A stretch of DNA of 64,000 nucleotides from Bacteroidales bacterium (GCA_016342685.1 JAEINU010000001.1:824169-888168); one strand, 5' to 3'; shown: positions 2,708-25,019, counted from the first letter of the stretch. Program-made: numbers and translations. Notes: generated by a model from the letters alone, not told the origin.

Positions 2708-2854
2708 CGTATTGTTTTATTAATGAAGATAAAATATAAACATGAATGTTGAGAAATTGTTTATTCTCACATTCTATTTTTGATTATTCGTTTTATGTAC
2801 TAGTTTTGGAGTAGAACTTTTGAGAATTAAATAATCACAATTTGAATAGTACGT

Positions 2855-3256: not shown

Positions 3257-3360
3257 TAGTTTTAAGCCGTAGAGCCAAATTTGATAAAGCCTTCTGCTTT
3301 ATTCTTAGTTATTTTTTATAAGTTTGGTTTTAGATTATCACAAAACCGAATACGAAATTT

Positions 3361-4503: not shown

Positions 4504-4509
4504 TAAGTA

Positions 4510-5262: not shown

Positions 5263-5577
5263 ATCTTATAATTAATTAACATAAAGATATATACATTTTA
5301 ATTAATTAGCAATTAGTAATTTGTTAAATCTAATTTAATACATTGTTTAAATAATCTTTATAACTATCGAGATATTCGATGGATATGATTCTTCAAGACT
5401 TCGATAATTATTGTAATTACTTATTAACAAAGTACTTTTAATATCTTATGCCTAAAATATACTATATTGTTCTAAAGATTTTATATTTTTAAGGGTTAAT
5501 AGGCTAGGTTAATTTGCTAAAAAAAACTGAATAATAGGAATTTAGTTTTTACATTAACACATTAAAATAAGGAATCT

Positions 5578-8500
5578 ATGAGGAAATACTTTTACTCTAT
5601 TTTTAATCTTGAAGATAACGAAGGTTTAAGTGTATTTTTATTCCTCACTCAATCAATATTTCTGGGAATATTTTATGGTGCTTTTGATGTTGGAGCACAT
5701 GCTTTGTTTTTAACTGTATATCCAGCTTCAATGATTCCTAAAGCCTATATTGTTTCAGGTATTGCTGGTATCATTTTAACATCCTTGTATGCACGAATAC
5801 AGAACCGATTGCCATTTTCAAAATTGGCAATTTTAAATTTGATTTTCATTTCTATCTCAACAGCTATCCTAAGATTGTTATTTCAATTTACTGAAAGCAA
5901 TTGGCTTATTTTTCTAATTTTTATAATGATGGGGCCATTAAATATTATTGCTTTGTTAGGATTTTGGGGTGCCGTTGGTCGAATATTTTCTTTGCGTCAG
6001 GGGAAAAGATTATTTGGATTAATTGATAGCGGGCAAATTTTTGGTGCAATACTCAGTACTTTTGCTATTCCTGTATTGGTAGCAGTTGGATTTCAACAAA
6101 AAAACTTATTGTTTTTAAGTTCTGTAAGTATTGTAGGTGCTTTAATTATGCAATTAATAATATCTGTAAAATTTAACTTAAATCAGGTAATTAGTAAGGC
6201 TACAAAAAAACAAAAAAGACTACCTGTATTGTTAAAAAATAAGTACATCTTATTTATGTCTGTTTTTGTTGTGATGTCGATGTTTACAGCGTTCTTTATT
6301 CAATATTCTTTTCTTTCTGTAACAAAGGAGAATTATCCCGATCACAATGATTTAACTGAGTTCTTGGGAGCATTTACCGGAAGTCTTTTATTGTTTACTT
6401 TCTTGTTTAAAACCTTTTTGTATAGTAAGCTAATGAAAGCTTATGGACTGAAAATAAGTATGATTATATCGCCATTTTTACTTGGAATTTTTACATTATT
6501 AGCTGTTGGTATTGGTTCGCTTTGGGGGTATACCTCAGCATCAGCAAGCTTTATCTTTTTCTTTTTAATAATATCGTTAAGTCGCCTTTTCTCAAAAGCA
6601 CTAAAAGATGGAGTTGAGTATCCTTCTTTTAAAATATTGTATCAATCTTTAAAAGTAGATATAAGGCATGATGTTCAGGCTTATGTTGATGGAACTATTA
6701 ACGAAATTGCAGCATTAGCATCAGGACTCCTTTTGGCAGTTCTTGGATTGTTTGAATTTTTCACTCTTATACATTTTTCGTATGCTTTACTTATTATTTT
6801 AGTTATTTGGTTTTTTATCGCAAGAAAACTTTATTTCGAATATAAAACAACACTTCAGGAATCGCTGGCAGAATTCAAAGTTAAAGAAGAAAGTGTAAAT
6901 GATTTTTCCGAATATATAACAGATAATCTTTGTAATGATTTATCTAAAGATCCAAAATTTATAACTGGTATTGAGTTTAATTCGAAAATACATCCACTGG
7001 AATTCGAGCAAAATATTGATCAGTTAATTAGCCATTCAAATTCACAAATTGAAGAATATGCTATTAGTAAAGTTTCAGATCTTAAGTTAATTGAAAAGTA
7101 TATTAATATAAATAGCTTAAAGGAAGTTCACATTGAAAATGAAAATCTGAAAGAGGTTATTCATCGAGCTCAGAAAACTATAGAAACACCAGGTAATACA
7201 GAATTAATAAAATTATCGAAAGCACGAAGCACCGACGAAAGAGTTTTGGCAGCTTTTTTAATTGGTAAATTTTATAACAAAGAGTTATTTGTTTATTTAA
7301 AAGCTTTAATAAGAGATAATCAATCAACTGTTAAAATTGCTACAATTAGATCTGCAACCAAATTACAATTAGAAAGTCTTTGTCCATATATAATTGATTA
7401 TTTAGATTCTGAAGATATATATTCTTATGCCTATGATTCCATTCTTTTGTTCAAACAAAAGGCCTTGAGTTATTTAGATCTAGTATTTTATAAGTCTGGA
7501 ACAAATCATAGAGTGTTGCTTCGAATTGTTAAGTTAATTGCAGAGATAGGAGGAAATGAAGCAAAAGAGCTCTTAGTTAAAAAACTTGATCATCCGAATG
7601 AAGAGATTCTAAACTTTATATTACTCGGATTGCAAAAGTGTAATTTTGAGGCTGATGAAAACAATATTAATCAAGTCCATCAAATAATTGAAAAGCATAT
7701 TGGTCTTATAGGATGGAATATTGCTGCAAAACAAACTTTGTCTGAATACGATATTTTTGAGGAACTTGAGACTGCATTTAATGAGGAGATAACAGCTAAC
7801 TTTGAAATGTTGTATTTACTTCTTTCGCTTGCTTACGACGCGCAATCTGTTCTACATGTAAAAGAAAATATTGAAAGTGGAACTTCAGAAGGAGCTAGTT
7901 ATGCATTAGAACTTCTTGATTTATTTGTGTCTGAAGAGATTAAACCAAAATTATTTCCAGTTGTTGAGGATATTTCTTTATTAGAAAAAATTAGATTATT
8001 ACAAGATTTTTATCCTATAAAAAAACTGGAAATAGAAGAATTACTATTAGATACAATTAATAGAGATATAAATTTTATAAGTCTTTGGACTAAAGCATGT
8101 GCTATAAAAGCGATTAAAAACTTAAAGAATTCAAAAGTAACAGATGATTTGGTTGCGCATTTATTTAATCCAAATCAGCTATTAAGACAATCTGCTGCCG
8201 TAGTAATATACGAGTTGGATAAAGAAAATTATTATTCAATAGAAAAACGATTAAGTGATACTTATAAAGAGGAACTTGAAGATACATTAGATGAGCGCGA
8301 GGGTTCTGAGAATCATTTGTTATTTGAGAAAACACAATTTTTGAAATCCATTGAGCATTTTGAAAATGTGCCAAGTAAATATTTGTTTTTATTGGCTGAT
8401 GTAATGACAGAGTATAAAACAGAGGATGAGAATTTTTCTTTTTATAATGATTTAGAACTAAACGATAAGCTATTGTTAATAAAAGGAGATAGTGTTAGTT

Positions 8501-8721
8501 TAAAAGATGAATCGGCAAGTACATTATTGTTGCCAAATAAATTATATGTGATTGACGATTTAAAGGTAAAATCAAATCATTTTACTTTTGAAAACACCAT
8601 GAATAGCACTGTTTATTTAATTGATAAAAAAGATTTAATGTATAATGTATTTGATTATTATGAGATTGAAGTTTGTGTATTAAAGTGGTTTAGTAATGAA
8701 CTTCAGGCTGAACACATTTAG
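5578..8721 (+). CDS. Large membrane protein: N-terminal MFS/ATP:ADP-translocase-like 11-12 TM domain, central HEAT/PBS-lyase-like repeats, C-terminal degenerate cNMP-binding-like domain
   Basis: About 420 aa of hydrophobic helices at the N-terminus. Roughly 450 aa of leucine-rich alpha-helical repeats. The terminal ~120 aa is a beta-rich module resembling CAP effector domains but lacking a clear phosphate-binding cassette. First gene of a tightly packed co-directional cluster. Confidence 0.5.
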   Translation: MRKYFYSIFNLEDNEGLSVFLFLTQSIFLGIFYGAFDVGAHALFLTVYPASMIPKAYIVSGIAGIILTSLYARIQNRLPFSKLAILNLIFISISTAILRLLFQFTESNWLIFLIFIMMGPLNIIALLGFWGAVGRIFSLRQGKRLFGLIDSGQIFGAILSTFAIPVLVAVGFQQKNLLFLSSVSIVGALIMQLIISVKFNLNQVISKATKKQKRLPVLLKNKYILFMSVFVVMSMFTAFFIQYSFLSVTKENYPDHNDLTEFLGAFTGSLLLFTFLFKTFLYSKLMKAYGLKISMIISPFLLGIFTLLAVGIGSLWGYTSASASFIFFFLIISLSRLFSKALKDGVEYPSFKILYQSLKVDIRHDVQAYVDGTINEIAALASGLLLAVLGLFEFFTLIHFSYALLIILVIWFFIARKLYFEYKTTLQESLAEFKVKEESVNDFSEYITDNLCNDLSKDPKFITGIEFNSKIHPLEFEQNIDQLISHSNSQIEEYAISKVSDLKLIEKYININSLKEVHIENENLKEVIHRAQKTIETPGNTELIKLSKARSTDERVLAAFLIGKFYNKELFVYLKALIRDNQSTVKIATIRSATKLQLESLCPYIIDYLDSEDIYSYAYDSILLFKQKALSYLDLVFYKSGTNHRVLLRIVKLIAEIGGNEAKELLVKKLDHPNEEILNFILLGLQKCNFEADENNINQVHQIIEKHIGLIGWNIAAKQTLSEYDIFEELETAFNEEITANFEMLYLLLSLAYDAQSVLHVKENIESGTSEGASYALELLDLFVSEEIKPKLFPVVEDISLLEKIRLLQDFYPIKKLEIEELLLDTINRDINFISLWTKACAIKAIKNLKNSKVTDDLVAHLFNPNQLLRQSAAVVIYELDKENYYSIEKRLSDTYKEELEDTLDEREGSENHLLFEKTQFLKSIEHFENVPSKYLFLLADVMTEYKTEDENFSFYNDLELNDKLLLIKGDSVSLKDESASTLLLPNKLYVIDDLKVKSNHFTFENTMNSTVYLIDKKDLMYNVFDYYEIEVCVLKWFSNELQAEHI

Positions 8722-8758
8722 TCTTAAAAAAAGAAATATAGGCGAAAAATAAATAATT

Positions 8759-10765
8759 ATGTTAACCAAACTTGTTACAAGAATAAAAAGATATTATATG
8801 CGAAAAACAACCATTTTTAAGCAACTAATTTTAAATGTAGTAATTCCAGCAGTTTCAGCTTTGCTTATACTGGGCGTATTTAATTATAATCAAACAAAAT
8901 CGAATATTGTAAATTCTATAAATACAAAGAATAAGATAATTTCTCAGGAAATTATTCACATAATGGAATTTCAGGACGTTGCTCTTGAGGTTATTGAGCA
9001 GAGTTTAAATCCTGTAATGCAAACCTATAGTAGTCAGCTAGTAAATAATTATTTCAGAAACACAGACAATATAGATTTTGCCGATCTAAACAAGATTAGA
9101 AGAGAGTTGGGAATGGATATGGATATGGAAGATATTTATATTATCAATAAGGAAGGAATCGTTGTAAATACCACTTTTGAAAAGGATTTAGGATTGAATA
9201 TATTTTCGTTTGGAGATGATCATAAGGAATTACTTCTGGATATTTTTAAAGAAGGAAAGTTTGTAAACGAAAGATTTACAGTCGAATCAAGTACAAAGCG
9301 CCTGAAGAAGTACACCTATCAAACAACATTAGATGGCGAATATATAATTGAATTGGGAATTTATTCTAGACGTGCCGACGACATTATTAATTTTATAAAA
9401 ACAACCGTTAATAAGCTATCAAAAGATCAACCATCAATTGTAGATGTTGATTTATTTATAAGTAAAGATTACCCAATATCATTAAATAAAGATATTAACT
9501 TAAGTGATGAAGAAATTGTTTTCATGAAGGAACGATTCGAGCAACAAGATTCGACTCAGGTTTTTAAGAAAAGAAACAAACAAAAATTATATTACACATA
9601 TCTGTATATTAAAAGGTCAAATACAGATTTATATGAAGGAGCAGTAGTTCGCATAATTGCAGATCGATCTGGCGAAGACAAATTATTAAGGCGTGAAATG
9701 TTAAAGTTTTTAGCCGTTTTTGGATTAACCCTTGTAGTAGTAGTAGTTTTACTGTACCGAAAAACGAGAGTAATAACACATCCAATTAAGAAACTGGTTG
9801 ATAAAGTAAATAGAGTTACAGATGGACATTTGAATGAGCGAGCAGAAGTAATTGGTAACAATGAGATAGCAACGCTTTCGCAAAAATTCAATTCGATGAT
9901 TGAAGAGTTGGAGAGCTATTACAATGAACTGGAACAAAAAGTAAAAGATAGAACAGCTGAGGTGGTTCAACAGAAAGAATTAATAGAAATTAAGAATAAG
10001 CATATTATGGATAGTATCCATTATGCAAAACGAATTCAGAATGCGATTTTACCTCCCGATACTTATGTTAAACAATTACTTCCAAAATCATTTATTCTAT
10101 ATAAGCCGAAAGATGTTGTTAGTGGTGATTTCTACTGGATGACAAAAAAGAATAATCTGGCAATTTACGCTGCGGTTGATTGTACTGGGCATGGTGTTCC
10201 TGGAGCATTTATGTCAATTGTAGGGCATAATCAATTAAATTATGCTGTTGATGTTAAGAAAGCGCGAAGTGCAAATGTTATTCTGGACTATTTAAATGAA
10301 GGTGTTGTGGAGACATTGCGAGAAAAAGGTCAAGTTGGTAAAATAGCAGTAAAAGATGGAATGGATTTAGCTCTTTGTATAATTGATTATAAAAACATGA
10401 AGCTTCAGTTTGCAGGAGCAAACAACCCATTATGTCTGGTTCGAAATAATGAAATGATTCAGATAAAGGGAAACAAGCAGGCTATTGGGGGAGGATTCGA
10501 TGATGAGCTGCCTAAATTCACAAATCATGAAATGGATTTACAAAAAGGTGATGTGATATACACATTCTCTGATGGATATCCAGATCAGTTTGGAGGGCAC
10601 GATGGACGTAAATTTATGGTTAAAAAGTTTAGAGAATTATTGTTAAAAATTCATAGTCATCCGATTGAAGAGCAGGAAAAAATATTAGAAGATATTTTGG
10701 AAGAATGGAGAGGCAAAGAGGAACAAGTGGATGATATATTGATTATTGGAGTAAAAATTGAATAA
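8759..10765 (+). CDS. Membrane-bound PP2C-type (SpoIIE family) serine phosphatase with extracytoplasmic sensor domain and HAMP linker
   Basis: TM1 (LILNVVIPAVSALLILGVF); ~270-aa periplasmic region; TM2 (LAVFGLTLVVVVVLLY); HAMP; coiled coil; PP2C motifs (SGDFYW, DCTGHGVPGAFMS, DGYPDQFGG). Confidence 0.8.
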   Translation: MLTKLVTRIKRYYMRKTTIFKQLILNVVIPAVSALLILGVFNYNQTKSNIVNSINTKNKIISQEIIHIMEFQDVALEVIEQSLNPVMQTYSSQLVNNYFRNTDNIDFADLNKIRRELGMDMDMEDIYIINKEGIVVNTTFEKDLGLNIFSFGDDHKELLLDIFKEGKFVNERFTVESSTKRLKKYTYQTTLDGEYIIELGIYSRRADDIINFIKTTVNKLSKDQPSIVDVDLFISKDYPISLNKDINLSDEEIVFMKERFEQQDSTQVFKKRNKQKLYYTYLYIKRSNTDLYEGAVVRIIADRSGEDKLLRREMLKFLAVFGLTLVVVVVLLYRKTRVITHPIKKLVDKVNRVTDGHLNERAEVIGNNEIATLSQKFNSMIEELESYYNELEQKVKDRTAEVVQQKELIEIKNKHIMDSIHYAKRIQNAILPPDTYVKQLLPKSFILYKPKDVVSGDFYWMTKKNNLAIYAAVDCTGHGVPGAFMSIVGHNQLNYAVDVKKARSANVILDYLNEGVVETLREKGQVGKIAVKDGMDLALCIIDYKNMKLQFAGANNPLCLVRNNEMIQIKGNKQAIGGGFDDELPKFTNHEMDLQKGDVIYTFSDGYPDQFGGHDGRKFMVKKFRELLLKIHSHPIEEQEKILEDILEEWRGKEEQVDDILIIGVKIE

Positions 10766-10767
10766 TT

Positions 10768-12141
10768 ATGACGGATAAAAATCTGGATGTTTTGTTTTAT
10801 GTTCCATCTAAAAAGGAAAATGTAGATGAGCCTGAAAAACAATGGATTAATAATTTGAAATATATCCTTGAAATTAGTCTAAATCAGGTTTTAAAACGAA
10901 AAGCGAATTGTAACTTAGCATATGAAAACGATCCCATTCAAAATTCTGAAATCTATATTCAATGCTTTTTAGGAACAAATTTTTCTAAAGAAAAAACAAT
11001 TCAGAGTATATATAAAAGCGAAGATTTAAATATCTATCATGTATTAATTAACACTAATTCACTTGAGTTTTCGAATGCATTAATCAACTTAAAAACATAT
11101 CGTTTTTATAATGATCAAACCAGTAAGATTCTTGATTTAACATTGAAGTTAGAAGATATTTTAAATACTACGTGGCTTAAAATATCTGATCTTTCGTTTG
11201 AAATAGGAAAGGTTCTAAGAAAAAGGGATAAAAAGATACCTACAAACAATAAAATATTTATTGCAGAAACGAGTCCTGATCAGACATTGAATAGAAATTA
11301 TTTAGTGCGAGAGTTTAAGCATCAGGGTTACACTGTAGTTCCTGAAGATCAACTTCCTAATGATATTGTAAGTTTTAGTGATCAGGTTCAGAATCTTATG
11401 GAAGAATCGCTTATATCGATACATCTAATTGGGAATAATTATGCTCCTTTGCTTAACAATATTGAGATTTCGAAAGTAGAGTTGCAAAATGATATTTTTA
11501 ATGAAGTTATTGTAAAACCTGAATCTTTAAAACGGAATTTGCAGAGATTAGTACTTATTCCTCCTGCTTTAAAACCAAAATCTGACAAGCAAAAAAAGTA
11601 TATTGATAGTTTTAAACTAAATATTGAACTTCAAAAAAATACAGAGATAATACAATCGCCACTCGAAGATTTTAAATCTATAATTCAGAAAAAAGTAGAT
11701 GGATTTTTTAACGAGAATACTAAGCAAAAAGACGTCTCTATAAACAAATCAAAAAAAAGAACCATTTATATTATTGGCAATGGTACAAATGTAAATGCTA
11801 TAAAGGGTTTGAAAGAAGTACTTAATGAAAAAGGGTTTGATTTTGCTGAAACTATAAATTCTAAAAATAAAATTGAATTAATTAAAGATCATCAAAGAAA
11901 TTTAACTCATTGTGACGGTGTAATTGTTTATTATTCATCAAAAAATGAACAATGGTTAAATAGCAAATTGAGCGACATTGTTAAATCTCCTGGTATTGGA
12001 AGAAACATTCCATTTTTACTAAAAGCTATTTTGATAGATGGATTGCAGGAGCCAAAAATAGAAATGAATATTCGAGATTTACTGATTGTTAATACAAATA
12101 AACCCGATTATCTGAATCATTTATTGGAAAAAATAAAATAA
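10768..12141 (+). CDS. Hypothetical protein with two predicted flavodoxin-fold TIR/SLOG-like modules
   Basis: Beta-alpha-beta patterns KIFIAETSPDQ..GYTVVPEDQ..ISIHLIG and KRTIYIIGNGT..GFDF..CDGVIVYYSS. Start codon is 2 bp after the phosphatase stop, 4 bp before the STAND gene. Domain assignment is tentative. Confidence 0.35.
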   Translation: MTDKNLDVLFYVPSKKENVDEPEKQWINNLKYILEISLNQVLKRKANCNLAYENDPIQNSEIYIQCFLGTNFSKEKTIQSIYKSEDLNIYHVLINTNSLEFSNALINLKTYRFYNDQTSKILDLTLKLEDILNTTWLKISDLSFEIGKVLRKRDKKIPTNNKIFIAETSPDQTLNRNYLVREFKHQGYTVVPEDQLPNDIVSFSDQVQNLMEESLISIHLIGNNYAPLLNNIEISKVELQNDIFNEVIVKPESLKRNLQRLVLIPPALKPKSDKQKKYIDSFKLNIELQKNTEIIQSPLEDFKSIIQKKVDGFFNENTKQKDVSINKSKKRTIYIIGNGTNVNAIKGLKEVLNEKGFDFAETINSKNKIELIKDHQRNLTHCDGVIVYYSSKNEQWLNSKLSDIVKSPGIGRNIPFLLKAILIDGLQEPKIEMNIRDLLIVNTNKPDYLNHLLEKIK

Positions 12142-12145
12142 GATC

Positions 12146-15100
12146 ATGGCAGCTAGCAAAAATAAAAATATCAATGACTTAAATAACCCTTTCCCCGGTT
12201 TACGACCCTTTAAGGTCGAGGAAAGTCATTTGTTTTTTGGAAGAGAAGGTCAAAGTGAGGAAATATTAAATAAACTCTCCGACGAAAAGTTTGTTGCTGT
12301 TATCGGTGCATCTGGTAGTGGTAAATCTTCACTAATTTATTGTGGTTTGGTACCTGTATTATTTGGTGGGTTTGTTGGGGATGCAAATTCAACATGGAAA
12401 ATTATAGCTTCAAGACCTGGTAATTCTCCAATAGATAACCTTGCAAATGCAATTATTGGAAATTCAGAGAATGAAGATAACTCGGAAAACAATTTAATAA
12501 AGCAAAAGTTAAATGCTTCTATCTTACGAAGTAGTTCGAATGGTTTAGTAGAAGCTCTTGATCAAAATTACAATCTTGAAAAAGAAAATGTATTAATAAT
12601 AATTGATCAGTTTGAGGAACTGTTTAGATATAAATCGAGTAAAGGTGATCAATCAACATACAATGAATCGGAAGCTTTTGTAAAACTTTTAATCTCTGCA
12701 AATAAGGCAAAAGATGTTCCAGTTTACATTGTTTTAACGATGCGTTCTGATTTTATTGGCGAATGTTCTCAGTTTCATGAGTTAACTGAGTTAATAAATG
12801 AATCCAATTATTTAGTACCGCAAATGACGCGTGATGATTTTAAAAGCGCAATTGAAGGTCCTGTAGCAGTAGGCGGTGCAGAGATAGAAACACAATTAGT
12901 TCAGCAACTTTTAAATGAAGTAGGCGATAATCCCGATCAGCTTCCAATTTTGCAACATGCGCTAATGCGAACATGGAATTATTGGACAGAACATTCCGAC
13001 ACAGAGCAAGCAATTAGTATTTCGGATTATGCTGCAATTGGAAAAATGGAAAAAGCTTTGTCGGAACATGCGAATGAAGCATTTGATGAACTTAACGAAG
13101 ACGAAAAATTCATATGCGAAAGCATGTTTAAAACAATTACCGAAAAAGGTAATGATAATCGTGGTATTCGTCATCCTACAAGTATTAGTGATATTGCTAT
13201 AATTGCAAAAACTTCTACCGATAAGGTAAAGAAAGTTATAGATCCTTTTAGAGCAGCAGGAAGATCGTTTATTACACCATCGTTTGAAATAGAACTCGAA
13301 AATGATAGTATAATTGATTTATCGCATGAAAGTTTAATGCGTATCTGGAATAAACTACGAATTTGGGTTGAGGAGGAATGGAATGCAGTTCAAATGTATT
13401 CTCGATTATCAGAGGCATCGGAGATGTATCAACTTGGAAAAACTAGTTTATGGCGTCCGCCGGATTTACAATTAGCTTTAAATTGGAGAGATAAACAAAA
13501 GCCTACACTAGCTTGGGCTAAGAGATATAATCCTGCTTTTGAACGAGCAATGGTTTATTTAAAAACCAGCGATAAAGAGTTTAAAGCAGAAGAGGAAAAT
13601 AAGGTTAAGCTTCAGAAGAGACAACTTCGTCGTTCTAAGATATTTGCTATCGTATTGGGATCAGCTGCAATTATTGGAGTGGGTTTAACGATTTATTCAC
13701 AAATGCTTAAAGGAAGAGCCTTAAAACAAGAAAAAATAGCAACAGAGCAAAAGATAGAAGCGGATAAGCAAAAGGAAATTGCTGAAGAACAGACAATTAT
13801 CGCAAAAGAGAAGGAAAAGGAAGCCCTTGAACAGAAGGAAGAAGCGGAAAAACAAAAGTTAATTGCAGAGCAAAAGCAAAAAGAAGCAACACGGAATGCT
13901 GAGATTGCAGAAAGACAAACACAAATAGCAATACAACGGCAAGAAGAAGCAAATCAACAAAGAACTCTTGCAGAAAAGAATGCCGAAGAGGCAAGAAAAC
14001 AAACAGTGGAGGCAGAAAAGGCGCGGCAAGAAGCCTTAAGGAGAAGAATGCTGTCGATTTCGCAAAGTATGGCTGTTAAATCGCAACAAATATCCGACAA
14101 TACACAATTGAAGGCCTTGGTAGCGTATCAGTCTTATTTATTTAATAAAGATTATGATGGACCTAAGCATAACCCAGATGTGTATTTAGGTTTGTATTAT
14201 GCTTTAAAAGGATTAGAAGGTCAGTACTTTAATGCGCTCAATGGACATGAAGGATCTGTTATGGATATTGTTTTTGCACCCGAATCGAATGTCATGTATA
14301 GTACGGGTGGTGATGGAAAAATATTAAAATGGGATATTGGAAGTGATAATAAAAAGTTTGAGGTGATTGCTGAAAATCCATTCGTTCAAAGAGCGTTAGA
14401 AGTTACCAAAGATGGTAAATGGTTGATCTGTGCAACCGATCAAGCGAAGATATTATTGTTTAATCTGGAAAATAATGTTGAACAAAATCAAGAATTAATT
14501 GGGCATACTTCATTTGTAACAGGATTAGCGGTTGCTCCCGATAATTCATTCTTTATTTCATCGAGTAATGATAAGACAATTCGTAAATGGAATTTAAAAA
14601 CATTAGAAAGCGAAGTTCTTGTTACAAGCGATTCAAAAATAAATTCAATAGAAATATCTCCCGATTCAAAAAAAATTGTAGCAGGAACTCAAGATGGAAA
14701 AATTAGTATTTATGATTCTAATAACGAGAATTCTCCTATTGTTATTGAATCAAATTCAAAAAATGCAATATCATCAATATGTTATAATAAAAAAGGAGAC
14801 TGGATTGTTTCAGGTGATTCGAAAGGGAATGTTCAAGTTTGGGATGCAAATAATTATACTCAGATAAAAAATCTGCAAGGGCATAAATCAAGAATTTACG
14901 ATATTGCTTTTAACCCTAACGATTGTTTGCTTGCAACATCAAGTTTAGACGGTACCGTTCGGGTATGGGATTGTACAAATTTAAATAATCAGCCAATAGA
15001 GTTAAGAGATCATGAATCTTGGGTATTATCAATTTCTTTTACCCCAGACGGAAACAAATTAGTTACTTCTAGTAATAAAAAAGATAGAATCTTAATTTGG

Positions 15101-15238
15101 GATACTAAGCCAAATGCAATTGCAAGTAAAATCTTAAATAAATTAGAGCGTAATATGTCTGAAGATGAGTGGAATACTTATGTTGCCGAAGATATAGATT
15201 ATATCAAAACAATAGCTGAACAAATTAACACCAAATAA
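12146..15238 (+). CDS. Membrane-anchored STAND-class P-loop NTPase with coiled-coil stalk and C-terminal WD40 beta-propeller
   Basis: N-terminal PGLRPF..FFGRE motif followed by Walker A GASGSGKSS and Walker B IIIDQFEELF (AAA_16/NACHT-like, as in WD40/TPR-coupled STAND proteins). Single TM IFAIVLGSAAIIGVGLTIYS near residue 500. ~110-aa EKQK-rich coiled coil. At least 7 WD40 blades (GHEGSVMDIVF.., GHTSFVTGLAV.., GHKSRIYDIAF.. ending WD/WN). Confidence 0.75.
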   Translation: MAASKNKNINDLNNPFPGLRPFKVEESHLFFGREGQSEEILNKLSDEKFVAVIGASGSGKSSLIYCGLVPVLFGGFVGDANSTWKIIASRPGNSPIDNLANAIIGNSENEDNSENNLIKQKLNASILRSSSNGLVEALDQNYNLEKENVLIIIDQFEELFRYKSSKGDQSTYNESEAFVKLLISANKAKDVPVYIVLTMRSDFIGECSQFHELTELINESNYLVPQMTRDDFKSAIEGPVAVGGAEIETQLVQQLLNEVGDNPDQLPILQHALMRTWNYWTEHSDTEQAISISDYAAIGKMEKALSEHANEAFDELNEDEKFICESMFKTITEKGNDNRGIRHPTSISDIAIIAKTSTDKVKKVIDPFRAAGRSFITPSFEIELENDSIIDLSHESLMRIWNKLRIWVEEEWNAVQMYSRLSEASEMYQLGKTSLWRPPDLQLALNWRDKQKPTLAWAKRYNPAFERAMVYLKTSDKEFKAEEENKVKLQKRQLRRSKIFAIVLGSAAIIGVGLTIYSQMLKGRALKQEKIATEQKIEADKQKEIAEEQTIIAKEKEKEALEQKEEAEKQKLIAEQKQKEATRNAEIAERQTQIAIQRQEEANQQRTLAEKNAEEARKQTVEAEKARQEALRRRMLSISQSMAVKSQQISDNTQLKALVAYQSYLFNKDYDGPKHNPDVYLGLYYALKGLEGQYFNALNGHEGSVMDIVFAPESNVMYSTGGDGKILKWDIGSDNKKFEVIAENPFVQRALEVTKDGKWLICATDQAKILLFNLENNVEQNQELIGHTSFVTGLAVAPDNSFFISSSNDKTIRKWNLKTLESEVLVTSDSKINSIEISPDSKKIVAGTQDGKISIYDSNNENSPIVIESNSKNAISSICYNKKGDWIVSGDSKGNVQVWDANNYTQIKNLQGHKSRIYDIAFNPNDCLLATSSLDGTVRVWDCTNLNNQPIELRDHESWVLSISFTPDGNKLVTSSNKKDRILIWDTKPNAIASKILNKLERNMSEDEWNTYVAEDIDYIKTIAEQINTK

Positions 15239-15239: not shown

Positions 15240-16274
15240 ATGAATAGATCTAAATCTTATATATTATTATGTATCCTTATTTTAGCGGGATTCATATCTA
15301 ACGCTCAGCAAACAAATTGTGCATTGAAACTCGACGAAGCTGAAAATCTATATGAAATGGGTGTTTTAGATTCGATACCCGCAATGTTAAGATCATGTAT
15401 AGATGATGGATTTGAGAATGAGGAACTTGCGCGAGCATATAAATTGCTTATTAGAACATATCTATTTGAAGATTATCAGGAAATGGCTGAATTAACAATG
15501 ATGAAATTTCTGAAAAAATTTCCTGAATACGAAATCAAAGCGAATGATCCGATTGAGTTCACATATTTATATAAATCGTATAAAACAGTTCCCTTATATT
15601 CAATAGGTATAATCGGCGGTGTTAATAATTCTTTTATAAGAATTATTGAACCTTATAGCCTAGATAATGCAGAAGATTATTCAGGAGAGTATTCTGTTTT
15701 GGGAGTTGGCTATCAGTTTGGAATCCAGATAAAAAGATATATAAATGATGAGATTGAAATAAACTTGGATGCCTTATTTGTAAATAAGAAGTTTGAGTAT
15801 AATAATGAACAATTAGATTCAAAAGTAAATTATAAAGAGAGTCAATCTCATTTATCATTCCCAATTACTGGAACATATGATTTGGAATATAAAAATGTTA
15901 GACCATTTGTTAGATTTGGTTTTAGTATCGATTATTTGTTAGCGTCGACAGCAAGTGTAGAAAGGTCTTTTACAGGACCTACCTCATTGGAAGCCTTAAC
16001 AGGTCCAGATCTAGATGTTGTTGAGGATAGAAACCCTCTGGATTTTTCTTTACTATTCGGTGTTGGATTAAAATACAATGTAAAAAAGGGATATGTCATT
16101 TTTGATGCGCGATACAATTTAGGTTTAACCAATACTGTGAATAGCGAAAATAGATATGCAAATCCTGAGAAAACATGGTATTATAATTATGTTGATGATG
16201 ATTTTGCTATTAATAATGTATATGTTTCAATTGGATATGTTTATCCATTTTATAGAACCAGAAAACAAAAATAG
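15240..16274 (+). CDS. Outer-membrane beta-barrel protein with N-terminal TPR-like helical segment
   Basis: Signal peptide (ILILAGFISNAQQ); helical hairpin; then alternating-hydrophobic beta strands typical of the Bacteroidota OMP_b-brl family. Start is 1 bp after the STAND gene stop. Confidence 0.5.
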   Translation: MNRSKSYILLCILILAGFISNAQQTNCALKLDEAENLYEMGVLDSIPAMLRSCIDDGFENEELARAYKLLIRTYLFEDYQEMAELTMMKFLKKFPEYEIKANDPIEFTYLYKSYKTVPLYSIGIIGGVNNSFIRIIEPYSLDNAEDYSGEYSVLGVGYQFGIQIKRYINDEIEINLDALFVNKKFEYNNEQLDSKVNYKESQSHLSFPITGTYDLEYKNVRPFVRFGFSIDYLLASTASVERSFTGPTSLEALTGPDLDVVEDRNPLDFSLLFGVGLKYNVKKGYVIFDARYNLGLTNTVNSENRYANPEKTWYYNYVDDDFAINNVYVSIGYVYPFYRTRKQK

Positions 16275-16279: not shown

Positions 16280-17473
16280 ATGAATAAATCAAAATATATA
16301 ATACTTTTAATATACATTTTAACCTGCTATGCATGTGATAATTTAGACATCAAGTCAGGTCAATCAGAGTCTTTTATAAAAATATTTGGTTCGTATAGTG
16401 ATGATTATGGTGTAGATATAAAGGAATACGATAATGGTTATTTGATATTAGCAACAGTAAGTCCTAATAATGAAAATACAACAGACATTGCTATTATTAA
16501 AACTGATAAATATGGAAATCAAACAAATATTGAAACAATAGAGAAAAGTGGAAATGATCGTGCTTCAAAACTATTAATAACAAATGATGGAGGTTTTGTT
16601 ATTTTGGGAACATGTGAAGATACTGTTAACAATAACAAAGATATCTATGCTGCTAAGTACACCTCTACTTTAGAAAAAGAATGGACTAAGTCTATTGGTA
16701 AGGTCAGTGAAAATGAGGAAGGAATTTCAATTGCTAAACTATCAGATGGGTATTTAATTGCTGGTAATTCGGACGAAGCCAATGTGGCCAATGGAAATCC
16801 AAGTGGTGTGCAAGATATTGTTTTAATAAAAATAAACGAATCTGGAGATACACAATGGATAAATAGTTTTGGAGGAGTTGCCAAAGATATTGCAGTAGAT
16901 GTAATTGTTACCGATAATGGATTTGTTATAATTGGAACAACAGCAAGTTTTAGTGAACACGGACAGGACAAAGAAAACATAATTGTTATTAAAACAAATT
17001 CGGAAGGAAACGAAACGGATAAGTTAACATATGGAGGTTCATTCGACGACAAAGGTATTGCACTTATAGAATCAGATGCAGGTTATATTCTTCTTGGAAC
17101 CAAAGAGATATTATCAGGAGGAAACTCAGATATTTATTTAGTGTATTTAGGAAATGATATATATGATATTATTGATGAAAAAACATATGGCAGTTCAGGG
17201 GCAAACAATATTGGATCAGCTTTATATTATACAGGTAATAACCTTGTAGTTGCAGGAAGTAATGAAGAAGGAGGTGTAACTTCTGCCTATTTCTTAAAAC
17301 TAGATATTGAAGGAAATATTCTTATTGAAAATACTTTTGGTGGTTACGATGCACAAGTAATAAATGCTATTGAAAAGACAAGCGATGGTGGTTATATTAT
17401 GGTAGGTGTTAGTGGTTTCGGAGGAAATAATCAAATATGCTTATTAAAAGTAAGCTCTGAAGGGGAATTGTAA
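16280..17473 (+). CDS. Beta-propeller lipoprotein with ~50-aa degenerate blade repeats
   Basis: Lipoprotein signal (LTCYACDN). Repeated motifs DGGFVILGT / DGYLIAGNS / DNGFVIIGTT / DAGYILLGTK / DGGYIMVGVS. Confidence 0.5.
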   Translation: MNKSKYIILLIYILTCYACDNLDIKSGQSESFIKIFGSYSDDYGVDIKEYDNGYLILATVSPNNENTTDIAIIKTDKYGNQTNIETIEKSGNDRASKLLITNDGGFVILGTCEDTVNNNKDIYAAKYTSTLEKEWTKSIGKVSENEEGISIAKLSDGYLIAGNSDEANVANGNPSGVQDIVLIKINESGDTQWINSFGGVAKDIAVDVIVTDNGFVIIGTTASFSEHGQDKENIIVIKTNSEGNETDKLTYGGSFDDKGIALIESDAGYILLGTKEILSGGNSDIYLVYLGNDIYDIIDEKTYGSSGANNIGSALYYTGNNLVVAGSNEEGGVTSAYFLKLDIEGNILIENTFGGYDAQVINAIEKTSDGGYIMVGVSGFGGNNQICLLKVSSEGEL

Positions 17474-17516: not shown

Positions 17517-20500
17517 ATGAAAAAGAGATATCAAATATTCTATATATTATTGTTTGTACTAATATCCAATCTGGGATTTGCACAATTAACTATAGTTAAT
17601 GCACTAGCTGTTGATGGCGATTCAAATGGATTTTATGGAACAGTGGAGATAGAATTTTCTACTGGAGTTAACGATGCTGAAATGCAAACAAGTGCATTGC
17701 CGCGAGACGATTGGGAGTTTTCTGAAGACCCAGAATTTACAACTTTTATTAGACCTAATAGCTTTAGTACAGAAGTTTTTGATATCGCAGTGGCAAATGT
17801 AGCAAATGATAAATATATTCGATTAACATTTCCATCTGAATTTTCTTCGAGTACTGGAACAATTTATTATAGATATATAAATGGTAATCTAGGTTCAGAT
17901 GATGTAACAGATTTTACTACAGGAACAGATGTGTTAGCTGATTTTGCAATTAAAAGTGCCACTGATGGTGCACCGCCTGTTATTTCTGGCGTTGTTTCAA
18001 ATGCAACAGATGCTGGAGTTTTAAAAGTTGGTGAATCGATTGTATTTACCGTCGATTTTGAAGATACTACTAATGATCCTAATTTAACAATACTACCTGC
18101 TCAATATAATAGTGAAGATTTAAACTGGATTACATCAAATGGTGGAGATACTTATACTGGAACGTATACTGTTACAGAAGGAAATGCAGATCAAACCACG
18201 GAATTACAATTAACAGGAGTAACAGCTACAGATGAGTATGGCAATGTGAGTGCATCTTTTAACGGAACTGATGTAGATAAAACGATTGATGCAAATACAC
18301 CTACTATTTCTTCAGTAACATCTGATGCAACTGCTGCTGACACATTAATTGTTGGAGAAACGATTACATTTACTGTTGATACAGAAACAGGACTTACAAT
18401 ATTACCCTTACAGTATAATGGACAAAACTTAAATTGGACAGCTATTAGTGGTGGAGATACCTATCAGGGTATATATACAGTAATGGAAGGTGATCAAGAT
18501 AGAATAACACCATTGCAGTTAACAGGAGTAACAGCTGAAGATGCTGCTGGGAATATTAGCAATACTGAAGATGGTAGTGATGTAGTAAAATCTATCGATG
18601 CAAATACACCATCGATAGTGACAGTTAAATCTGATGCAACAGCAGCTGGAATTTTAAAAGTTGGTGATAAAATAACTTTTACAATTGATGTTGCCACTCC
18701 AGATGGGAACTTAAGTGTAAATCCTTCCAATTATAATGGAGAAACCTTAAGTTGGTCTACGAGTGATGGAGGTGATTCATACATTGGAATATACACTGTA
18801 GTGGATAATGGTGTGGATCAGACTTCAGATTTGCAACTAACAGGAGTAACTTTAACAGATGCTGCAGGTAATGTTAGTAGTTCCGTTGATGGTGTTGATA
18901 TAGAGAAAACAATAGATTCAAATATACCTACTATTTCTTCAGTAACCTCCGATGCAACTGCTGCTGACACATTAATTGTTGGAGAAACGATTACGTTTAC
19001 CGTTGATGTTGTTGATACAGAAACAGGACTTACAATATTACCCTTACAGTATAATGGACAAAACTTAAATTGGACTGACATCAGTAGTGGTGATACTTAT
19101 CAGGGTATATATACCGTAATGGAAGGTGATCAGGATAGAATAACACCATTGCAGTTAACGGGAGTAACAGCTGAAGATGCTGCTGGGAATATTAGCAATA
19201 CTGAAGATGGTAGTGATGTAGTAAAATTAATCGATGCAAATACACCATCGATAGTGACAGTTAAATCTGATGCAACAGAAGCTGGGATTTTAAAAGTCGG
19301 TGATAAAATAACCTTTACAATTGATGTCGCTACTCCAGATGGGAACTTAAGTGTAAATCCTTCCAATTATAATGGAGAAACCTTAAGTTGGTCTACGAGT
19401 GATGGAGGTGATTCATACATTGGAATATACACTGTAGTGGATAATGGTGTGGATCAGACTTCAGATTTGCAACTAACAGGAGTAACTTTAACAGATGCTG
19501 CAGGTAATGTTAGTAGTTCCTTTGATGGTGTTGATATAGTGAAAACAATAGATTCAAATATACCTACTATTTCTTCAGTAACATCTGATGCAACTGCTGC
19601 TGATACATTAATTGTTGGAGAAACAATTACATTTACTGTTGATGTTGAAGATACAGAAACAGGACTTACAATATTACCCTTACAGTATAATGGACAAAAC
19701 TTAAATTGGACTGAGGTTAGTAGTGGTGATACCTATCGGGGTATATATACAGTAATGGAAGGTGATCAAGATAAAATAACACCATTGCAGTTAACAGGAG
19801 TAACAGCTGAAGATGCTGCTGGGAATATTAGCAACACTGAAGATGGTAGTGATGTAGTAAAATCTATCGATGCAAATACACCATCGATAGTGACAGTAAC
19901 ATCTGATGCAACCTTACTAGGAGTTCTAAAAGTTGGAGATAAAATTACATTTACTATAGATGTGGTTACTTCTGATGGAAACCTAACAGTTAATCCTACA
20001 AGCTATAATGGCAGAGCTTTAAATTGGTTTACAGATGATGGAGGCAGCACTTATACAGGAATATACAATGTTACAGAAGGAGATCCAGATCAATCTTCAG
20101 CTTTGCCTTTTACAGGAGTGACCTTAACTGATGTAGCAGGTAATGTAAGTGCAATATATAGTGCAAGTGATGTTGTAAAGACGATTGATGCGAATTCTCC
20201 ATTTATAAATAATTTTGTTGTACCTCAAATTAATATGACAATAGGAAACACTTATACAGCCACGATAAGTGTTAGTTCAGATCCTGATACTTATACTCTT
20301 ACTTCTGGTGAACTATCTGGATTTACGTTACATTCTTTAACAAAAGATGCTGATGATTCTTATTCGGTTGATTTTACTATTACCGATTTAGGATACGACA
20401 TATTAAGTGATAATTCATATTTGATTTCTAATTTGGTGATGTCAGATGCCTCTGGTAATATTTCAAATACTTATTCAAGTTCAATAAGTCAAATAAATGA

Positions 20501-24428: not shown

Positions 24429-24431
24429 TAA

Positions 24432-24463
24432 AACAAGGGCATCTAAGTGGATGCCCTTGTTTT
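24432..24463. terminator. Bidirectional rho-independent terminator between convergent genes
   Basis: Perfect 12-bp stem AACAAGGGCATC / GATGCCCTTGTT with 6-nt loop, flanked by A-run upstream and T-run downstream. Confidence 0.7.
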
Positions 24464-24464
24464 A

Positions 24465-25019
24465 TTATCTGTTATCTCTTCTTCGATAATGCTTTTCTTG
24501 GTTTTCCCTTCGATGAGAATTTCGTCTAGGCTCTTTATCTTGAACAGAAATCATTCGAATAAATAATTTCTTTAAGACTTCTTGTTGTTCTTCATTGCAA
24601 ATTTCTTTTAGTCCAAGAAAATGATCCGAAGTAAGTAATTTTAGTTCATAATGCAAATTGCCAATTTGTCTTGAAATTGAATCTATATTTTTCAGATTCG
24701 GATCTTTATTAGCAATTTCATCTATTAATAAATGCCTGTATTTATTGAGTGCATCACTTTTATTTCGTGTTTTCACTGCATACTCTCTATTGATATTTTT
24801 AAACGCATTAAATTGCTCATCTGATAATTTTAATTCATTTCTAAAATAATCATACATTCCTGATCTTCTAATTTCTTCTTTCTGAATATTTATCTTATCT
24901 ATCTTTTTAGCTTTAATTTTACTATTGTAATAAATAGTACCTAATGCCGATACATTTATTATTACAAGTAAAGTAATTAGAATAATTAGAAGTCTTTTTT
25001 TATTAATACTATTCATCAT
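24465..25019 (-). CDS. Periplasmic Spy/CpxP-family (LTxxQ-like) protein, likely envelope-stress chaperone
   Basis: Signal/anchor helix; helical repeats with LSDEQFNAFK and LTSDHFLGLKEI motifs; last gene of the ECF sigma operon. Confidence 0.5.
   Translation of the reverse strand: MMNSINKKRLLIILITLLVIINVSALGTIYYNSKIKAKKIDKINIQKEEIRRSGMYDYFRNELKLSDEQFNAFKNINREYAVKTRNKSDALNKYRHLLIDEIANKDPNLKNIDSISRQIGNLHYELKLLTSDHFLGLKEICNEEQQEVLKKLFIRMISVQDKEPRRNSHRRENQEKHYRRRDNR

Follow-up and report, generated by a model that had tools for sequence, protein, structure and literature searches.

Textbooks treat STAND/NLR-type switches as receptors of the cytosol, in animals and plants as well as in fungi and bacteria, and the sensors of STAND proteins are classically cytosolic WD40 and TPR arrays. 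The nSTAND1 NTPases (PF20703) were described by Kaur, Iyer, Burroughs and Aravind (eLife 2021, PMC8195603); in the accessible text of that paper they are defined within predicted counter-invader systems, which are cytoplasmic and carry fused effector or adaptor domains, and a transmembrane (TM) helix after the NTPase is not mentioned there. In Planctomycetota, Ser/Thr kinases with a cytoplasmic ATP-using domain, a single TM helix and predicted periplasmic WD40 or TPR repeats are described in the available part of PMC11032199. DUF4062 domains are known from the literature as NADases in the Swarozyc, Evangelion, Vulcan, Vesta and Avs2 defence systems, mutants with glutamine in place of their catalytic glutamate are inactive, and the combination of TIR with SLATT constitutes Thoeris type VII.

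The window analyzed here is a 64,000-nucleotide stretch of a Bacteroidales bacterium (GCA_016342685.1, JAEINU010000001.1:824169-888168). It possesses a tightly packed operon, genes A to G, whose order is conserved across Bacteroidota orders. The genes and the end of the unit are as follows.

5578..8721, + strand: gene A, membrane protein of 1047 aa with MFS/TLC-like multiple TM segments, HEAT repeats (HEAT_2) and a weak cNMP-binding-like C-terminus
8759..10765, + strand: gene B, membrane HAMP-PP2C phosphatase, SpoIIE/SiaA-like (HAMP and SpoIIE)
10768..12141, + strand: gene C, 457 aa, three flavodoxin/TIR-like domains at residues 1-152, 160-315 and 330-457 (AlphaFold2 pLDDT 83)
12146..15238, + strand: gene D, nSTAND1 NTPase, TM helix, heptad stalk and WD40 propeller, 1030 aa from an ATG start (ORF and Pfam)
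15240..16274, + strand: gene E, beta-barrel protein of the outer membrane, bearing a signal peptide and, N-terminally, a helical domain of about 90 aa (OMP_b-brl_2, E=2.4e-17)
16280..17473, + strand: gene F, probable lipoprotein with SBBP/beta-propeller-like repeats (weak match to an NCBIfam SBBP lipoprotein model)
17517..24428, + strand: gene G, repetitive surface protein of 2303 aa with a T9SS type A C-terminal sorting domain (Por_Secre_tail, TIGR04183)
24426..24467, no strand assigned: bidirectional intrinsic-terminator-like hairpin with a 19 bp stem, ending the A-G unit (terminator search)

The intergenic gaps from A to G measure 37, 2, 4, 1, 5 and 43 nt, with the stop of C 4 nt ahead of the start of D and the start of E 1 nt past the stop of D. 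The terminator search found no other terminator-like site between genes A and G, and one weak hairpin at 5678-5698 inside A; G is the final gene ahead of the sole strong terminator. On one strand, the order A-(B)-C-D-E-(F) was recovered from Bacteroidales, Cytophagales and one Vicingaceae genome, about 80 species-level genomes in all, with D identity of 42-76% over full-length alignments. Gene A is the most constant partner of D and lies upstream of it in nearly all loci extending far enough; its domain assignment is supported by orthologues (TLC/MFS_1 in L003 and weak cNMP_binding in L087). Gene B, with a SiaA-like match (E=3e-76) that falls below cutoff, was found in Bacteroidales-type clusters only. 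Gene E (N-terminus MNRSKSYILLCILILAGFISNAQQ) is downstream of D in nearly every locus, and F (N-terminus MNKSKYIILLIYILTCYACDN) was found after E in many loci. Giant genes equivalent to G are present in L001 and L003.

Gene D is best read from its sequence features as coding for a STAND-class (nSTAND1) receptor that crosses the inner membrane once. Its parts are arranged as follows.

12188..13432, + strand: nSTAND1 NTPase module, predicted cytoplasmic, residues 15-429 (PF20703)
12188-12247, + strand: PFPGLRPF..FFGRE motif, PFPGLRPFKVEESHLFFGRE, residues 15-34
12305-12328, + strand: Walker A, GASGSGKS, residues 54-61
12590-12619, + strand: Walker B, VLIIIDQFEE, residues 149-158
13538..13639, + strand: juxtamembrane helix, predicted cytoplasmic, residues 465-498, with the basic end KLQKRQLRRSK (AlphaFold2 helix 465-532)
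13640..13708, + strand: single TM helix, residues 499-521, IFAIVLGSAAIIGVGLTIYSQML (hydropathy, conservation and positive-inside bias)
13709..14089, + strand: predicted periplasmic alpha-helical stalk, residues 522-648 (heptads, length classes, AlphaFold2)
14090..14242, + strand: two-helix linker from stalk to propeller, residues 649-699 (model helices 653-669 and 677-691)
14243..15115, + strand: seven-bladed WD40 propeller, residues about 700-990, predicted periplasmic sensor or docking domain (Pfam, AlphaFold2, Foldseek)

The first-pass annotation had assigned D to the STAND NTPases from the PGLRPF..FFGRE and Walker A/B arrangement and had proposed a homology check of the N-terminus against nSTAND-type profiles. 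The assignment was borne out, as PF20703 matched residues 15-429 over profile positions 1-372 of 379 at E=3.3e-96 and 323.6 bits, far above the cutoff of 27.1. The P-loop NTPase motifs are intact, including Walker A, the Walker B acidic residues and the sensor arginine R200. Among 32 homologues, residues G54, S56, G57, G59, K60, S61, S62, Q155, F156, E157, E158 and R200 were invariant. The statement that no effector domain is fused to D also stands, since the Pfam search found no domain other than nSTAND1 and WD40, and profile search gave no match to EAD or bDLD models.

D possesses one strong hydrophobic segment. Residues 499-517 have a Kyte-Doolittle mean of 2.25 and a summed Hessa-scale value of -0.45, and the uncharged core extends over 23 residues, 499-521, so the original estimate of a single helix at about 495-515 was essentially right. 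G505 is invariant, and A501, L504, A507, A508 and I509 are at least 90% conserved. Rather than being a buried helix of the NTPase, the segment begins 70 residues past the end of the nSTAND1 match, directly after the basic KLQKRQLRRSK, and lies within a single unbroken straight helix of 184 residues (465-648) in the AlphaFold2 model. A signal peptide in place of an internal TM helix was not detected on D, whose N-terminus is MAASKNKNINDLNNPFPG. At least 120 full-length homologues of 1019-1065 aa were present among the matches listed, three being shorter, partial sequences. The hydrophobic segment occupies the same place in all 120 of the full-length homologues listed, at 51-99% identity, and is far beyond chance. 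A search with residues 1-480 as query returned 10,154 cluster representatives at E<=1e-30. Among the 150 closest of these, clustered at 50% identity, 147 have the TM helix, which is therefore no peculiarity of the D gene. The trans-membrane architecture, earlier called unusual, is indeed so for the STAND class as a whole, but within this nSTAND1 subclade it is standard. In the literature searched, so far as its accessible text extends, no description of a TM helix after the NTPase in this subclade was found.

The orientation of the helix is suggested by several features. D has seven K/R on the N side of the helix and four on the C side; over 148 diverse representatives the averages are 6.4 and 3.2, with N exceeding C in 135, and the median uncharged core is 23 residues long. 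The NTPase side would be cytoplasmic because the NTPase requires cytoplasmic ATP. In relatives, the equivalent TM helix is followed by dCache_1 (P0290, bracketed by two TM helices), CHASE2 (P0273) or Trypsin_2, a trypsin-like domain (P0319), which as diagnostic extracytoplasmic modules support the same topology for D. By the positive-inside rule, ATP logic and these modules, an N-in/C-out membrane anchor at 499-521 is supported, and the conditional proposal that stalk and WD40 domain are extracytoplasmic if the ATPase is cytoplasmic gains from the same three lines. It is very improbable that the segment is instead a buried, peripheral or latent pore-forming helix of a wholly cytoplasmic protein. 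The normally cytoplasmic location of WD40/TPR sensors in STAND proteins and the low AlphaFold2 confidence around residues 520-570 would suit such a protein, but the hydropathy and negative Hessa sum are typical for TM helices, the uncharged core with its strong basic N flank recurs in the 148 relatives, the segment is outside the NTPase fold in the straight helix, and the Cache domain of the relative is closed off by a second TM helix.

The predicted stalk is composed of 127 residues rich in E, A, Q and K (28 K/R and 26 D/E) and would measure about 19 nm if helical throughout. Its heptads number about 16, with position 1 an invariant Ala (A539, A546, A553, A567 ... A630) and position 4 Gln/Asn (+3 from Ala), and its core is weakly hydrophobic, with Ala, Gln and Ile alternating with Glu. 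An EKQK-rich coiled coil of about 110 residues had been described here; the charged helical stretch is present in the model at low confidence (pLDDT 43-73, below 50 at residues 549-570), but it is longer than was stated. Stalk length varies mostly by whole heptads. From anchor to anchor, 138 proteins measure 132 residues, 20 measure 139, eight 146, three 125, two 153 and one 160; lengths are congruent modulo 7 in 173 of 191 proteins, and 35 of the 53 proteins with a distance other than 132 differ by a multiple of seven.

The stalk is followed by a conserved linker (60% mean identity) and the propeller. Pfam reported six WD40 stretches in D along with matches to beta-propeller models, while the AlphaFold2 model has 27 strands between residues 705 and 986 at pLDDT of about 90, which fits seven blades. 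The top Foldseek match was the seven-bladed WD40 domain of PkwA (5yzv, TM-score 0.93), in agreement with the at least seven blades first counted. Relatives of D carry either WD40 or TPR as C-terminal repeats. Regional identity is highest in the juxtamembrane helix and NTPase (0.71-0.79), the juxtamembrane helix being the most conserved segment of the protein at 79% mean identity, and lowest in the WD40 region (0.46). A conserved NTPase and juxtamembrane part with a divergent WD40 part is the pattern expected for a signalling core and a sensor.

A fixed-length stalk would also be suited to an inside-out structural or mechanical device, in which the assembly state of the NTPase holds or remodels an outer-membrane complex of E, F and G. 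The layout is analogous to TolA/TonB or the periplasm-spanning GldM/PorM, and TolA domain II is a charged Ala/Lys/Glu-rich helix similar in composition to the E/A/K/Q-rich stalk of D. A single stalk length in 115 of the 120 homologues listed, changed otherwise by whole heptads, is ruler-like. The barrel, lipoprotein and T9SS cargo genes follow directly in the same transcription unit, and in Persicobacter a related A-D pair stands alone, embedded in a contractile injection system cluster. We nevertheless regard this device as distinctly improbable, since STAND NTPases are slow switches rather than motors, the operon has no TolQR/ExbBD-type stator, adjacency of G is inconsistent in Cytophagales, and the Cache or CHASE2 domains of relatives suggest ligand sensing. 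A periplasmic WD40-type propeller, a further point on its side, is known in PorE of the T9SS from the available parts of PMC12773672 and PMC12204202.

The individual domains of the gene C product matched TIR structures (4c6t_B, 8i87_C and 8k34_A). Among 37 members of the C family, 20 show a DUF4062 match and nine a TIR_2 match; the former (PF13271) maps to domain 2 over profile positions 1-73 of 82. The C protein of the window itself gave no Pfam match, PF13271 included, at E<=0.01. Motif alignment placed Q240-N241 at the catalytic E-Y position of DUF4062, invariant in 37 sequences, and relatives from outside Bacteroidota likewise have Q at the position of the catalytic glutamate. Domain 1 has SKEKTIQSI where the relatives L084 and L086 show SEWCLREL and SEWCIREL (SxWCxxEL, alpha-C helix), and in the family this TIR glutamate is kept only in some Bacteroidales lineages. 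C is probably an adaptor or nucleotide binder because it is catalytically degenerate in this genome, and these motifs suit an adaptor better than a lethal effector. The candidate effector-like TIR/SLOG protein which the first-pass annotation placed upstream of D is thus TIR-like at the family level, but by motif comparison the expected catalytic glutamate is absent from both candidate domains, 1 and 2.

The C-D pair also recurs outside Bacteroidota. There its relatives adjoin LSDAT-SLATT or DUF4231 pore-type effectors and CHAT-TPR genes, and one is on a mobilisable Caballeronia plasmid beside an IS3 transposase; among more distant relatives, some are on plasmids and some beside conflict genes. 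These neighbours, the definition of nSTAND1 within predicted counter-invader systems in the available text of PMC8195603, the defence NADases with DUF4062, the TIR and SLATT make-up of Thoeris type VII and the WD40 region as the fastest-evolving part of D would all suit a usual nSTAND1 anti-phage or conflict system. In such a system the propeller would sense an invader component in the envelope, the NTPase would oligomerise, and C would deplete NAD+ or make a signal leading to abortive infection. We consider this unlikely for the present operon. PADLOC gave no meaningful match for D, C, E or F, and gene order and orthology are kept across Bacteroidota orders, which is atypical of defence islands; a sporadic, mobile distribution was not observed, the cluster being syntenic in the approximately 80 genomes. 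C has lost both glutamates, its Q240 corresponding to the inactive mutants. Profile searches found no SLATT or other killing module within the A-G operon, where the partners are an outer-membrane protein, a lipoprotein, a transporter-like protein and a PP2C phosphatase, and a fused or adjacent effector, or an effector-associated or Death-like adaptor, of the kind in conflict systems sensu Kaur et al. was not found at the D locus, where the adjacent TIR-like C lacks the catalytic glutamate. From this comparison, the pair would by origin be one common to the TIR-STAND(-SLATT) conflict modules of other phyla, and in Bacteroidota it is best read as now being part of a mostly chromosomal, syntenic envelope-signalling operon.

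The whole is best, and rather probably, explained by D acting as a STAND receptor that spans the envelope and is akin to TIR-STAND conflict modules. The NTPase switch and juxtamembrane helix would lie in the cytoplasm, the 23-residue helix would span the membrane N-in/C-out, and the stalk would hold the propeller across the periplasm towards the outer membrane, where it may meet the barrel E or the lipoprotein F, or else some ligand that these bind. Binding or a mechanical change at the propeller could be passed through the register-sensitive predicted coiled coil to the TM helix, and so control how the NTPase exchanges nucleotide and oligomerises. In turn, the NTPase might organise the translationally coupled triple TIR-like protein C and also engage protein A, the MFS/TLC-HEAT protein of the membrane, while the HAMP-PP2C phosphatase B would add another arm of regulation. 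As a TM helix between NTPase and sensor bars the usual autoinhibitory contact, the proposed route of transmission is without characterised precedent.

More tentatively, C-D may be an immune module of the TIR-STAND(-SLATT) kind that was fixed long ago in Bacteroidota as a housekeeping trans-envelope receptor. An NLR-like switch in the cytoplasm would then monitor the outer membrane or periplasm by way of a coiled coil, locked in register and of ruler length, and a periplasmic WD40 propeller docked to a dedicated outer-membrane protein and lipoprotein, and TIR-like scaffolds without catalytic activity and a membrane partner resembling a transporter would carry the output. If all of this were true, transmembrane NLR-like receptors would for the first time form a defined class, and C-D would exemplify the domestication of an immune module for envelope signalling. 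If the topology holds across the subclade (147 of the 150 closest), ligand sensing and NTPase switching would be coupled through a TM helix and a coiled coil, a mechanism which to our knowledge nobody has studied. The operon is a compact, culturable entry to a predicted trans-envelope system conserved in several Bacteroidota orders, with Fulvivirga kasyanovii, Chryseosolibacter histidini and Perlabentimonas gracilis among its carriers, and it offers a route to asking how conflict modules such as TIR-STAND become domesticated.

Compared with known systems, D is predicted to share with TolA/TonB and GldM/PorM an inner-membrane anchor and an elongated segment, about as long as the periplasm is wide, reaching outer-membrane partners, but it has no proton-motive stator partner and its anchor is internal, after a 498-residue NTPase. 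The likeness is in layout alone, with no sequence kinship claimed, and profile searches found neither TolQR/ExbBD stator genes nor a C-terminal TolA/TonB domain in D or its neighbours. Thoeris type VII and the DUF4062-NIR NADase systems resemble the locus in the DUF4062 and TIR_2 signatures of the C family and in the SLATT or DUF4231 genes beside C-D relatives outside Bacteroidota, whereas, unlike these systems (Avs2-NIR included), the C protein of the window lacks both catalytic glutamates and has no SLATT gene with it. The Planctomycetota membrane kinases have the layout predicted for D, with a signalling domain that uses ATP in the cytoplasm, one TM helix and predicted periplasmic WD40 or TPR repeats, and the kinase-WD40 protein PkwA provides the closest solved structure to its propeller; they differ in having a kinase rather than a STAND switch, an unrelated gene context and, in the accessible text of PMC11032199, no long heptad stalk reported. 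To the nSTAND1 family D is linked by the full-length profile match, the PGLRPF..FFGRE and Walker A/B motifs, the C-terminal WD40 superstructure repeats and the TIR-type partner. Against the systems in the available text of PMC8195603, D has no fused effector or Death-like adaptor, a TM helix and heptad stalk separate its NTPase from the repeats, and its gene sits in a conserved, mostly chromosomal operon. Apaf-1 and other NB-ARC-WD40 proteins and the Avs-type receptors have, like D, a P-loop switch, helical domains and a seven-bladed WD40 sensor, and Foldseek aligned the D model with full-length Apaf-1 over about 1057 columns. Activation driven by oligomerisation is presumed for both, but those receptors are soluble and their sensor touches the NTPase directly, whereas the sensor of D is predicted to lie across the membrane from its switch.

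The window has a G+C content of ~30%, and its ORF 12146..15238 on the forward strand encodes protein D of 1030 aa, to which residue numbers refer unless protein C is named. Pfam placed an nSTAND1 domain (PF20703) on residues 15-429 with an E-value of 3.3e-96 and WD40/beta-propeller models on residues ~750-993. The STAND-type N-terminus with Walker A and B motifs, described in the first-pass annotation, was recovered along with the hydrophobic helix at the following positions:

Residues 15-34, N-terminal motif PFPGLRPFKVEESHLFFGRE
Residues 54-61, Walker A, GASGSGKS
Residues 149-158, Walker B, VLIIIDQFEE
Residues 499-521 (window 13640-13708, +), uncharged core of the hydrophobic helix, with KLQKRQLRRSK before and KGRALKQEK after it

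A 19-residue Kyte-Doolittle scan gave only one outstanding hydrophobic segment, 499-517, with a mean of 2.25 and a summed Hessa scale of -0.45; the runner-up adjoins the P-loop and reached 1.56. The proposed single helix is real, with its boundaries slightly shifted (499-521 against ~495-515). A charged stalk follows it as proposed, on residues 522-648 with 28 K/R and 26 D/E, and measures 127 residues in place of ~110; fully helical, it would be ~19 nm long by calculation. The N-terminus is without a hydrophobic segment, so no signal peptide was found there and the alternative of a signal peptide in place of an internal helix was rejected. No second copy (paralogue) of D occurs within the window.

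The AlphaFold2 model of D was built from a 32-sequence alignment and had a mean pLDDT of 74. It contains an alpha/beta NTPase modelled with moderate confidence, one essentially continuous helix at 465-648 with the hydrophobic segment inside, two short helices at 653-691 and a propeller of 27 strands at 705-986 (pLDDT ~90). As modelled, the hydrophobic helix sits outside the NTPase fold; on this and the hydropathy scan, its reading as a buried helix of the NTPase, the other alternative raised at first pass, was rejected. The nearest solved structure in Foldseek was 5yzv (TM-score 0.93), a 7-bladed WD40 domain from PkwA, which is a bacterial kinase. WD40 matches dominated the list, with little on the NTPase besides full-length Apaf-1, alignable across ~1057 columns. 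The propeller of at least 7 blades expected from the sequence thus agrees with the Pfam models, the strands and the 7-bladed best match.

The hydrophobic segment is a family trait. Among the full-length D homologues listed (51-99% identity, mostly Bacteroidales MAGs), it was present at the equivalent position in 120 of 120, between residues 487 and 536 (119 full-length ones), and 117 of the 120 measure 1019-1065 aa. Searched with the NTPase part alone (residues 1-480), a set of 1.84 billion cluster representatives yielded 43,627 matches with E ≤ 1e-3. With E ≤ 1e-30 there were 10,154, and the best 150 (36-61% identity, 592-1805 aa) were surveyed for the helix. It stands directly behind the NTPase in 147 of them. 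The median uncharged core is 23 residues (148 of the best 150), and the same 148 show a positive-inside bias, with a mean of 6.4 K/R in the N flank versus 3.2 in the C flank. The N flank has more K/R in 135/148 and is more positive by net charge in 138/148. WD40 comes after the TM helix in 104 and TPR in most others examined. Some relatives carry other modules:

P0290, dCache_1 at 622-755, between two TM helices (483 and 820)
P0273, TIR_2, TM helix and CHASE2, in this order
P0319, trypsin-like domain behind the TM and an AxxQ-type helix

The modules behind the TM in these three are diagnostic of the extracytoplasmic side; this, added to the NTPase's dependence on ATP, supports an N-in/C-out topology. 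Comparison of sequences argues strongly for this topology in D and, equally strongly, for a periplasmic propeller. A fully cytoplasmic D, with the propeller on the side of the NTPase, is unlikely.

In the 32-sequence alignment, position G505 of the TM helix never varies and conservation reaches at least 90% at A501, L504, A507, A508 and I509, which exceeds the needs of a passive anchor. The conserved small residues (G505, A501, A507, A508) hint at specific helix-helix packing, with the helix itself or the multi-TM protein A as candidate partners. Literature searches gave no description of the TM-STAND-WD40 architecture. A TM helix after the NTPase is mentioned neither in PMC8195603, which defines nSTAND1, as far as searched, nor in a survey of prokaryotic WD40 proteins. 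The layout had been called unusual at first pass; it is undescribed and unstudied in the literature searched, yet widespread, as its frequency among the best 150 relatives shows.

Along the stalk, (nearly) invariant alanines recur with a period of 7 at 525, 532, 539 and onwards to 630 in the same alignment. The residue three positions past each alanine is mostly Gln or Asn, and the preceding position is Ile/Leu alternating with Glu. Stalk length was taken as the distance from a pre-TM anchor to a post-stalk anchor in 191 proteins and fell into several distinct classes: 132 (n=138), 139 (n=20), 146 (n=8), 125 (n=3), 153 (n=2) and 160 (n=1). The distance is congruent modulo 7 in 173/191 proteins. 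An artefact of same-length homologues was rejected as the cause, since 35/53 proteins outside the modal 132 class still differ by a multiple of 7, though not as phylogenetically independent events. Such a heptad-quantised stalk is a new observation. Whole-heptad changes imply that both length and angular register between TM/NTPase and propeller are constrained, in keeping with a helix that transmits a signal or serves as a ruler. An inside-out structural role of D is a less likely reading. Mean identity to the query D in the 32-sequence alignment is 0.71-0.75 for the NTPase and helical domains, 0.79 for the juxtamembrane helix, 0.63 for the TM helix, 0.53 for the stalk and 0.46 for WD40.

The gene of D lies in a packed unit of seven genes on one strand:

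5578..8721 (+), A, MFS/TLC-like membrane domain, HEAT repeats and a weak cNMP-binding-like end
8759..10765 (+), B, HAMP-PP2C phosphatase, SiaA-like
10768..12141 (+), C, protein with TIR-like domain matches
12146..15238 (+), D, predicted STAND receptor
15240..16274 (+), E, signal peptide, helical domain and OMP beta-barrel
16280..17473 (+), F, probable lipoprotein with SBBP-like repeats
17517..24428 (+), G, T9SS cargo of 2303 aa

The gaps are 37, 2, 4, 1, 5 and 43 nt, and the sole strong terminator of the unit is at 24426-24467. A sigma-70 promoter scan, whose model does not cover Bacteroidota promoters, did not outperform shuffled sequence, with 120 sites versus 111 expected, and its sites were disregarded. 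The translation of G (17517-24428, +) contains several near-identical ~190-aa repeats, e.g. '...TIDANTPTISSVTSDATAADTLIVGETITFTVD...'; no DNA repeat of G was reported by Tandem Repeats Finder, whose 500-nt limit the period exceeds. The same gene order was seen on contigs whose D homologues have 72% and 53% identity. Scanning one genome per species revealed 80 loci with full-length D matches (42-76% identity) in Bacteroidales, Cytophagales (Fulvivirga, Ekhidna, Reichenbachiella, Marinoscillum, Chryseosolibacter, Sporocytophaga and Ohtaekwangia), one Vicingaceae genome and others. Fulvivirga kasyanovii JCM 16186, Chryseosolibacter histidini PWU4 and Perlabentimonas gracilis are carriers available in culture. 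In tblastn with the window proteins, A, C, D and E keep a constant order on all contigs of sufficient length; B is restricted to a Bacteroidales subset and F is often present. This conserved Bacteroidota operon is a new observation, and literature searches found no phenotype of the cluster in Cytophaga or Flavobacterium. Bacteroidota-type clusters also occur under the labels 'Thiohalospira sp.' (L007, JBKHIH010000039.1, D at 71% identity) and 'uncultured Roseobacteraceae' (L028, CAZFQW010000086.1, D at 46%), which probably stem from misbinning of the source MAGs.

Adjoining the operon downstream on the opposite strand, 24465-26136 (-) encodes an ECF sigma factor, a zf-HC2 anti-sigma factor and a Metal_resist (Spy/CpxP-like) protein. 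The trio, which locus L003 has in the equivalent position, may be an envelope-stress regulator linked to the operon. Two paralogous 694-aa prolyl oligopeptidases (S9), each with an N-terminal beta-propeller, are encoded at 26289-28373 (-) and 29069-31153 (-) with a 188-aa ORF between them. Further on, four genes for methyl-accepting chemotaxis proteins stand in a row at 40402-51900 (+):

40402-42474 (+), methyl-accepting chemotaxis gene
44785-46782 (+), methyl-accepting chemotaxis gene
47357-49420 (+), methyl-accepting chemotaxis gene
49876-51900 (+), methyl-accepting chemotaxis gene

Their sensor domains vary (PDC/dCache, HBM, CZB), and the cluster deserves attention because Bacteroidales-like genomes are usually regarded as non-flagellated.

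Protein C was modelled as three alpha/beta domains (pLDDT 83), of which single ones match the TIR domains of RPS4/RRS1 and SPARTA TIR-APAZ in Foldseek. Because of the three domains, the whole chain gave poor global matches, so that use is made of the TIR matches of single domains only. A DUF4062 match was present in 20/37 members of the C family and TIR_2 in 9/37, both on domain 2, and a profile search of PDB sequences with the family had a designed protein as its sole match. According to three 2026 preprints, DUF4062 is a TIR-like NADase with its catalytic Glu in an acidic-SYT / E-Y motif, and E-to-Q mutants are dead. At the E-Y place C has an invariant Q240-N241, as placed by motif alignment and not against a solved DUF4062 structure; Q is also found there in non-Bacteroidota relatives. 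As domain 1 those relatives have a canonical TIR with SEWCLREL, where the C of the window has SKEKTIQSI, and the Glu is kept in some Bacteroidales lineages only. C evolves faster than D, with ~40% identity where D has ~72%. The effector-like TIR/SLOG protein postulated upstream of D at first pass is TIR-like by its domain matches, with degenerate catalytic motifs in the alignment. Because of these motifs, C in this genome is read as a putative scaffold or ligand-binding partner.

On several metagenomic contigs a TIR/DUF4062 protein of ~520 aa is again paired with an nSTAND1-TM-WD40/TPR protein, their coding regions abutting or overlapping. The loci with this pair or with related arrangements were:

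L084/L085, pair beside LSDAT-SLATT and CHAT-TPR genes
L086, pair present
Mobilisable Caballeronia plasmid, DUF4231(SLATT), TIR and WD40 in this order, adjoining an IS3 element
L087, Persicobacter psychrovividus pPP2, 5795-11994, A-like (1048 aa) and D-like (1013 aa, TM at 491)
L089, Runella rosea plasmid, 2522-11794, STAS, anti-sigma-factor antagonist, RsbW-like ATP-binding, then D-like, then TonB-dependent receptor

The pPP2 pair is without C, E or F and lies inside an extracellular contractile injection system, with sheath, tube, baseplate, DUF4255 and tape-measure genes around it. The STAS/RsbW-like neighbours on the Runella plasmid echo the PP2C gene B of the window and suggest that some D-like members feed partner-switching modules. 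Weak relatives of the D NTPase appeared in three phage records only. TIR plus SLATT constitutes Thoeris type VII, and through the SLATT-linked pairs the C-D-type module has conflict-system relatives. That the D operon is itself a defence system is nevertheless less likely, since its gene order is syntenic across Bacteroidota and defence islands usually do not show such conserved synteny; when D, C, E and F were scanned with PADLOC and NCBIfam, no meaningful match and no PADLOC system came up. We favour D as an inner-membrane STAND receptor with its propeller in the periplasm. It is plausible that the propeller would contact E or F and that the coiled coil would transmit to the NTPase; that C and A serve as outputs of D in the cytoplasm or membrane is speculative.

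D belongs to nSTAND1 by every feature testable in this analysis. Typical nSTAND1 conflict systems carry an effector or adaptor; D has neither, in line with the absence of a fused effector stated in the first-pass annotation, and it also differs from them by its syntenic distribution. D is thus not a typical nSTAND1 conflict system. Its layout is paralleled by Planctomycetota kinases, for which PMC11032199 predicts an internal kinase and periplasmic WD40/TPR.
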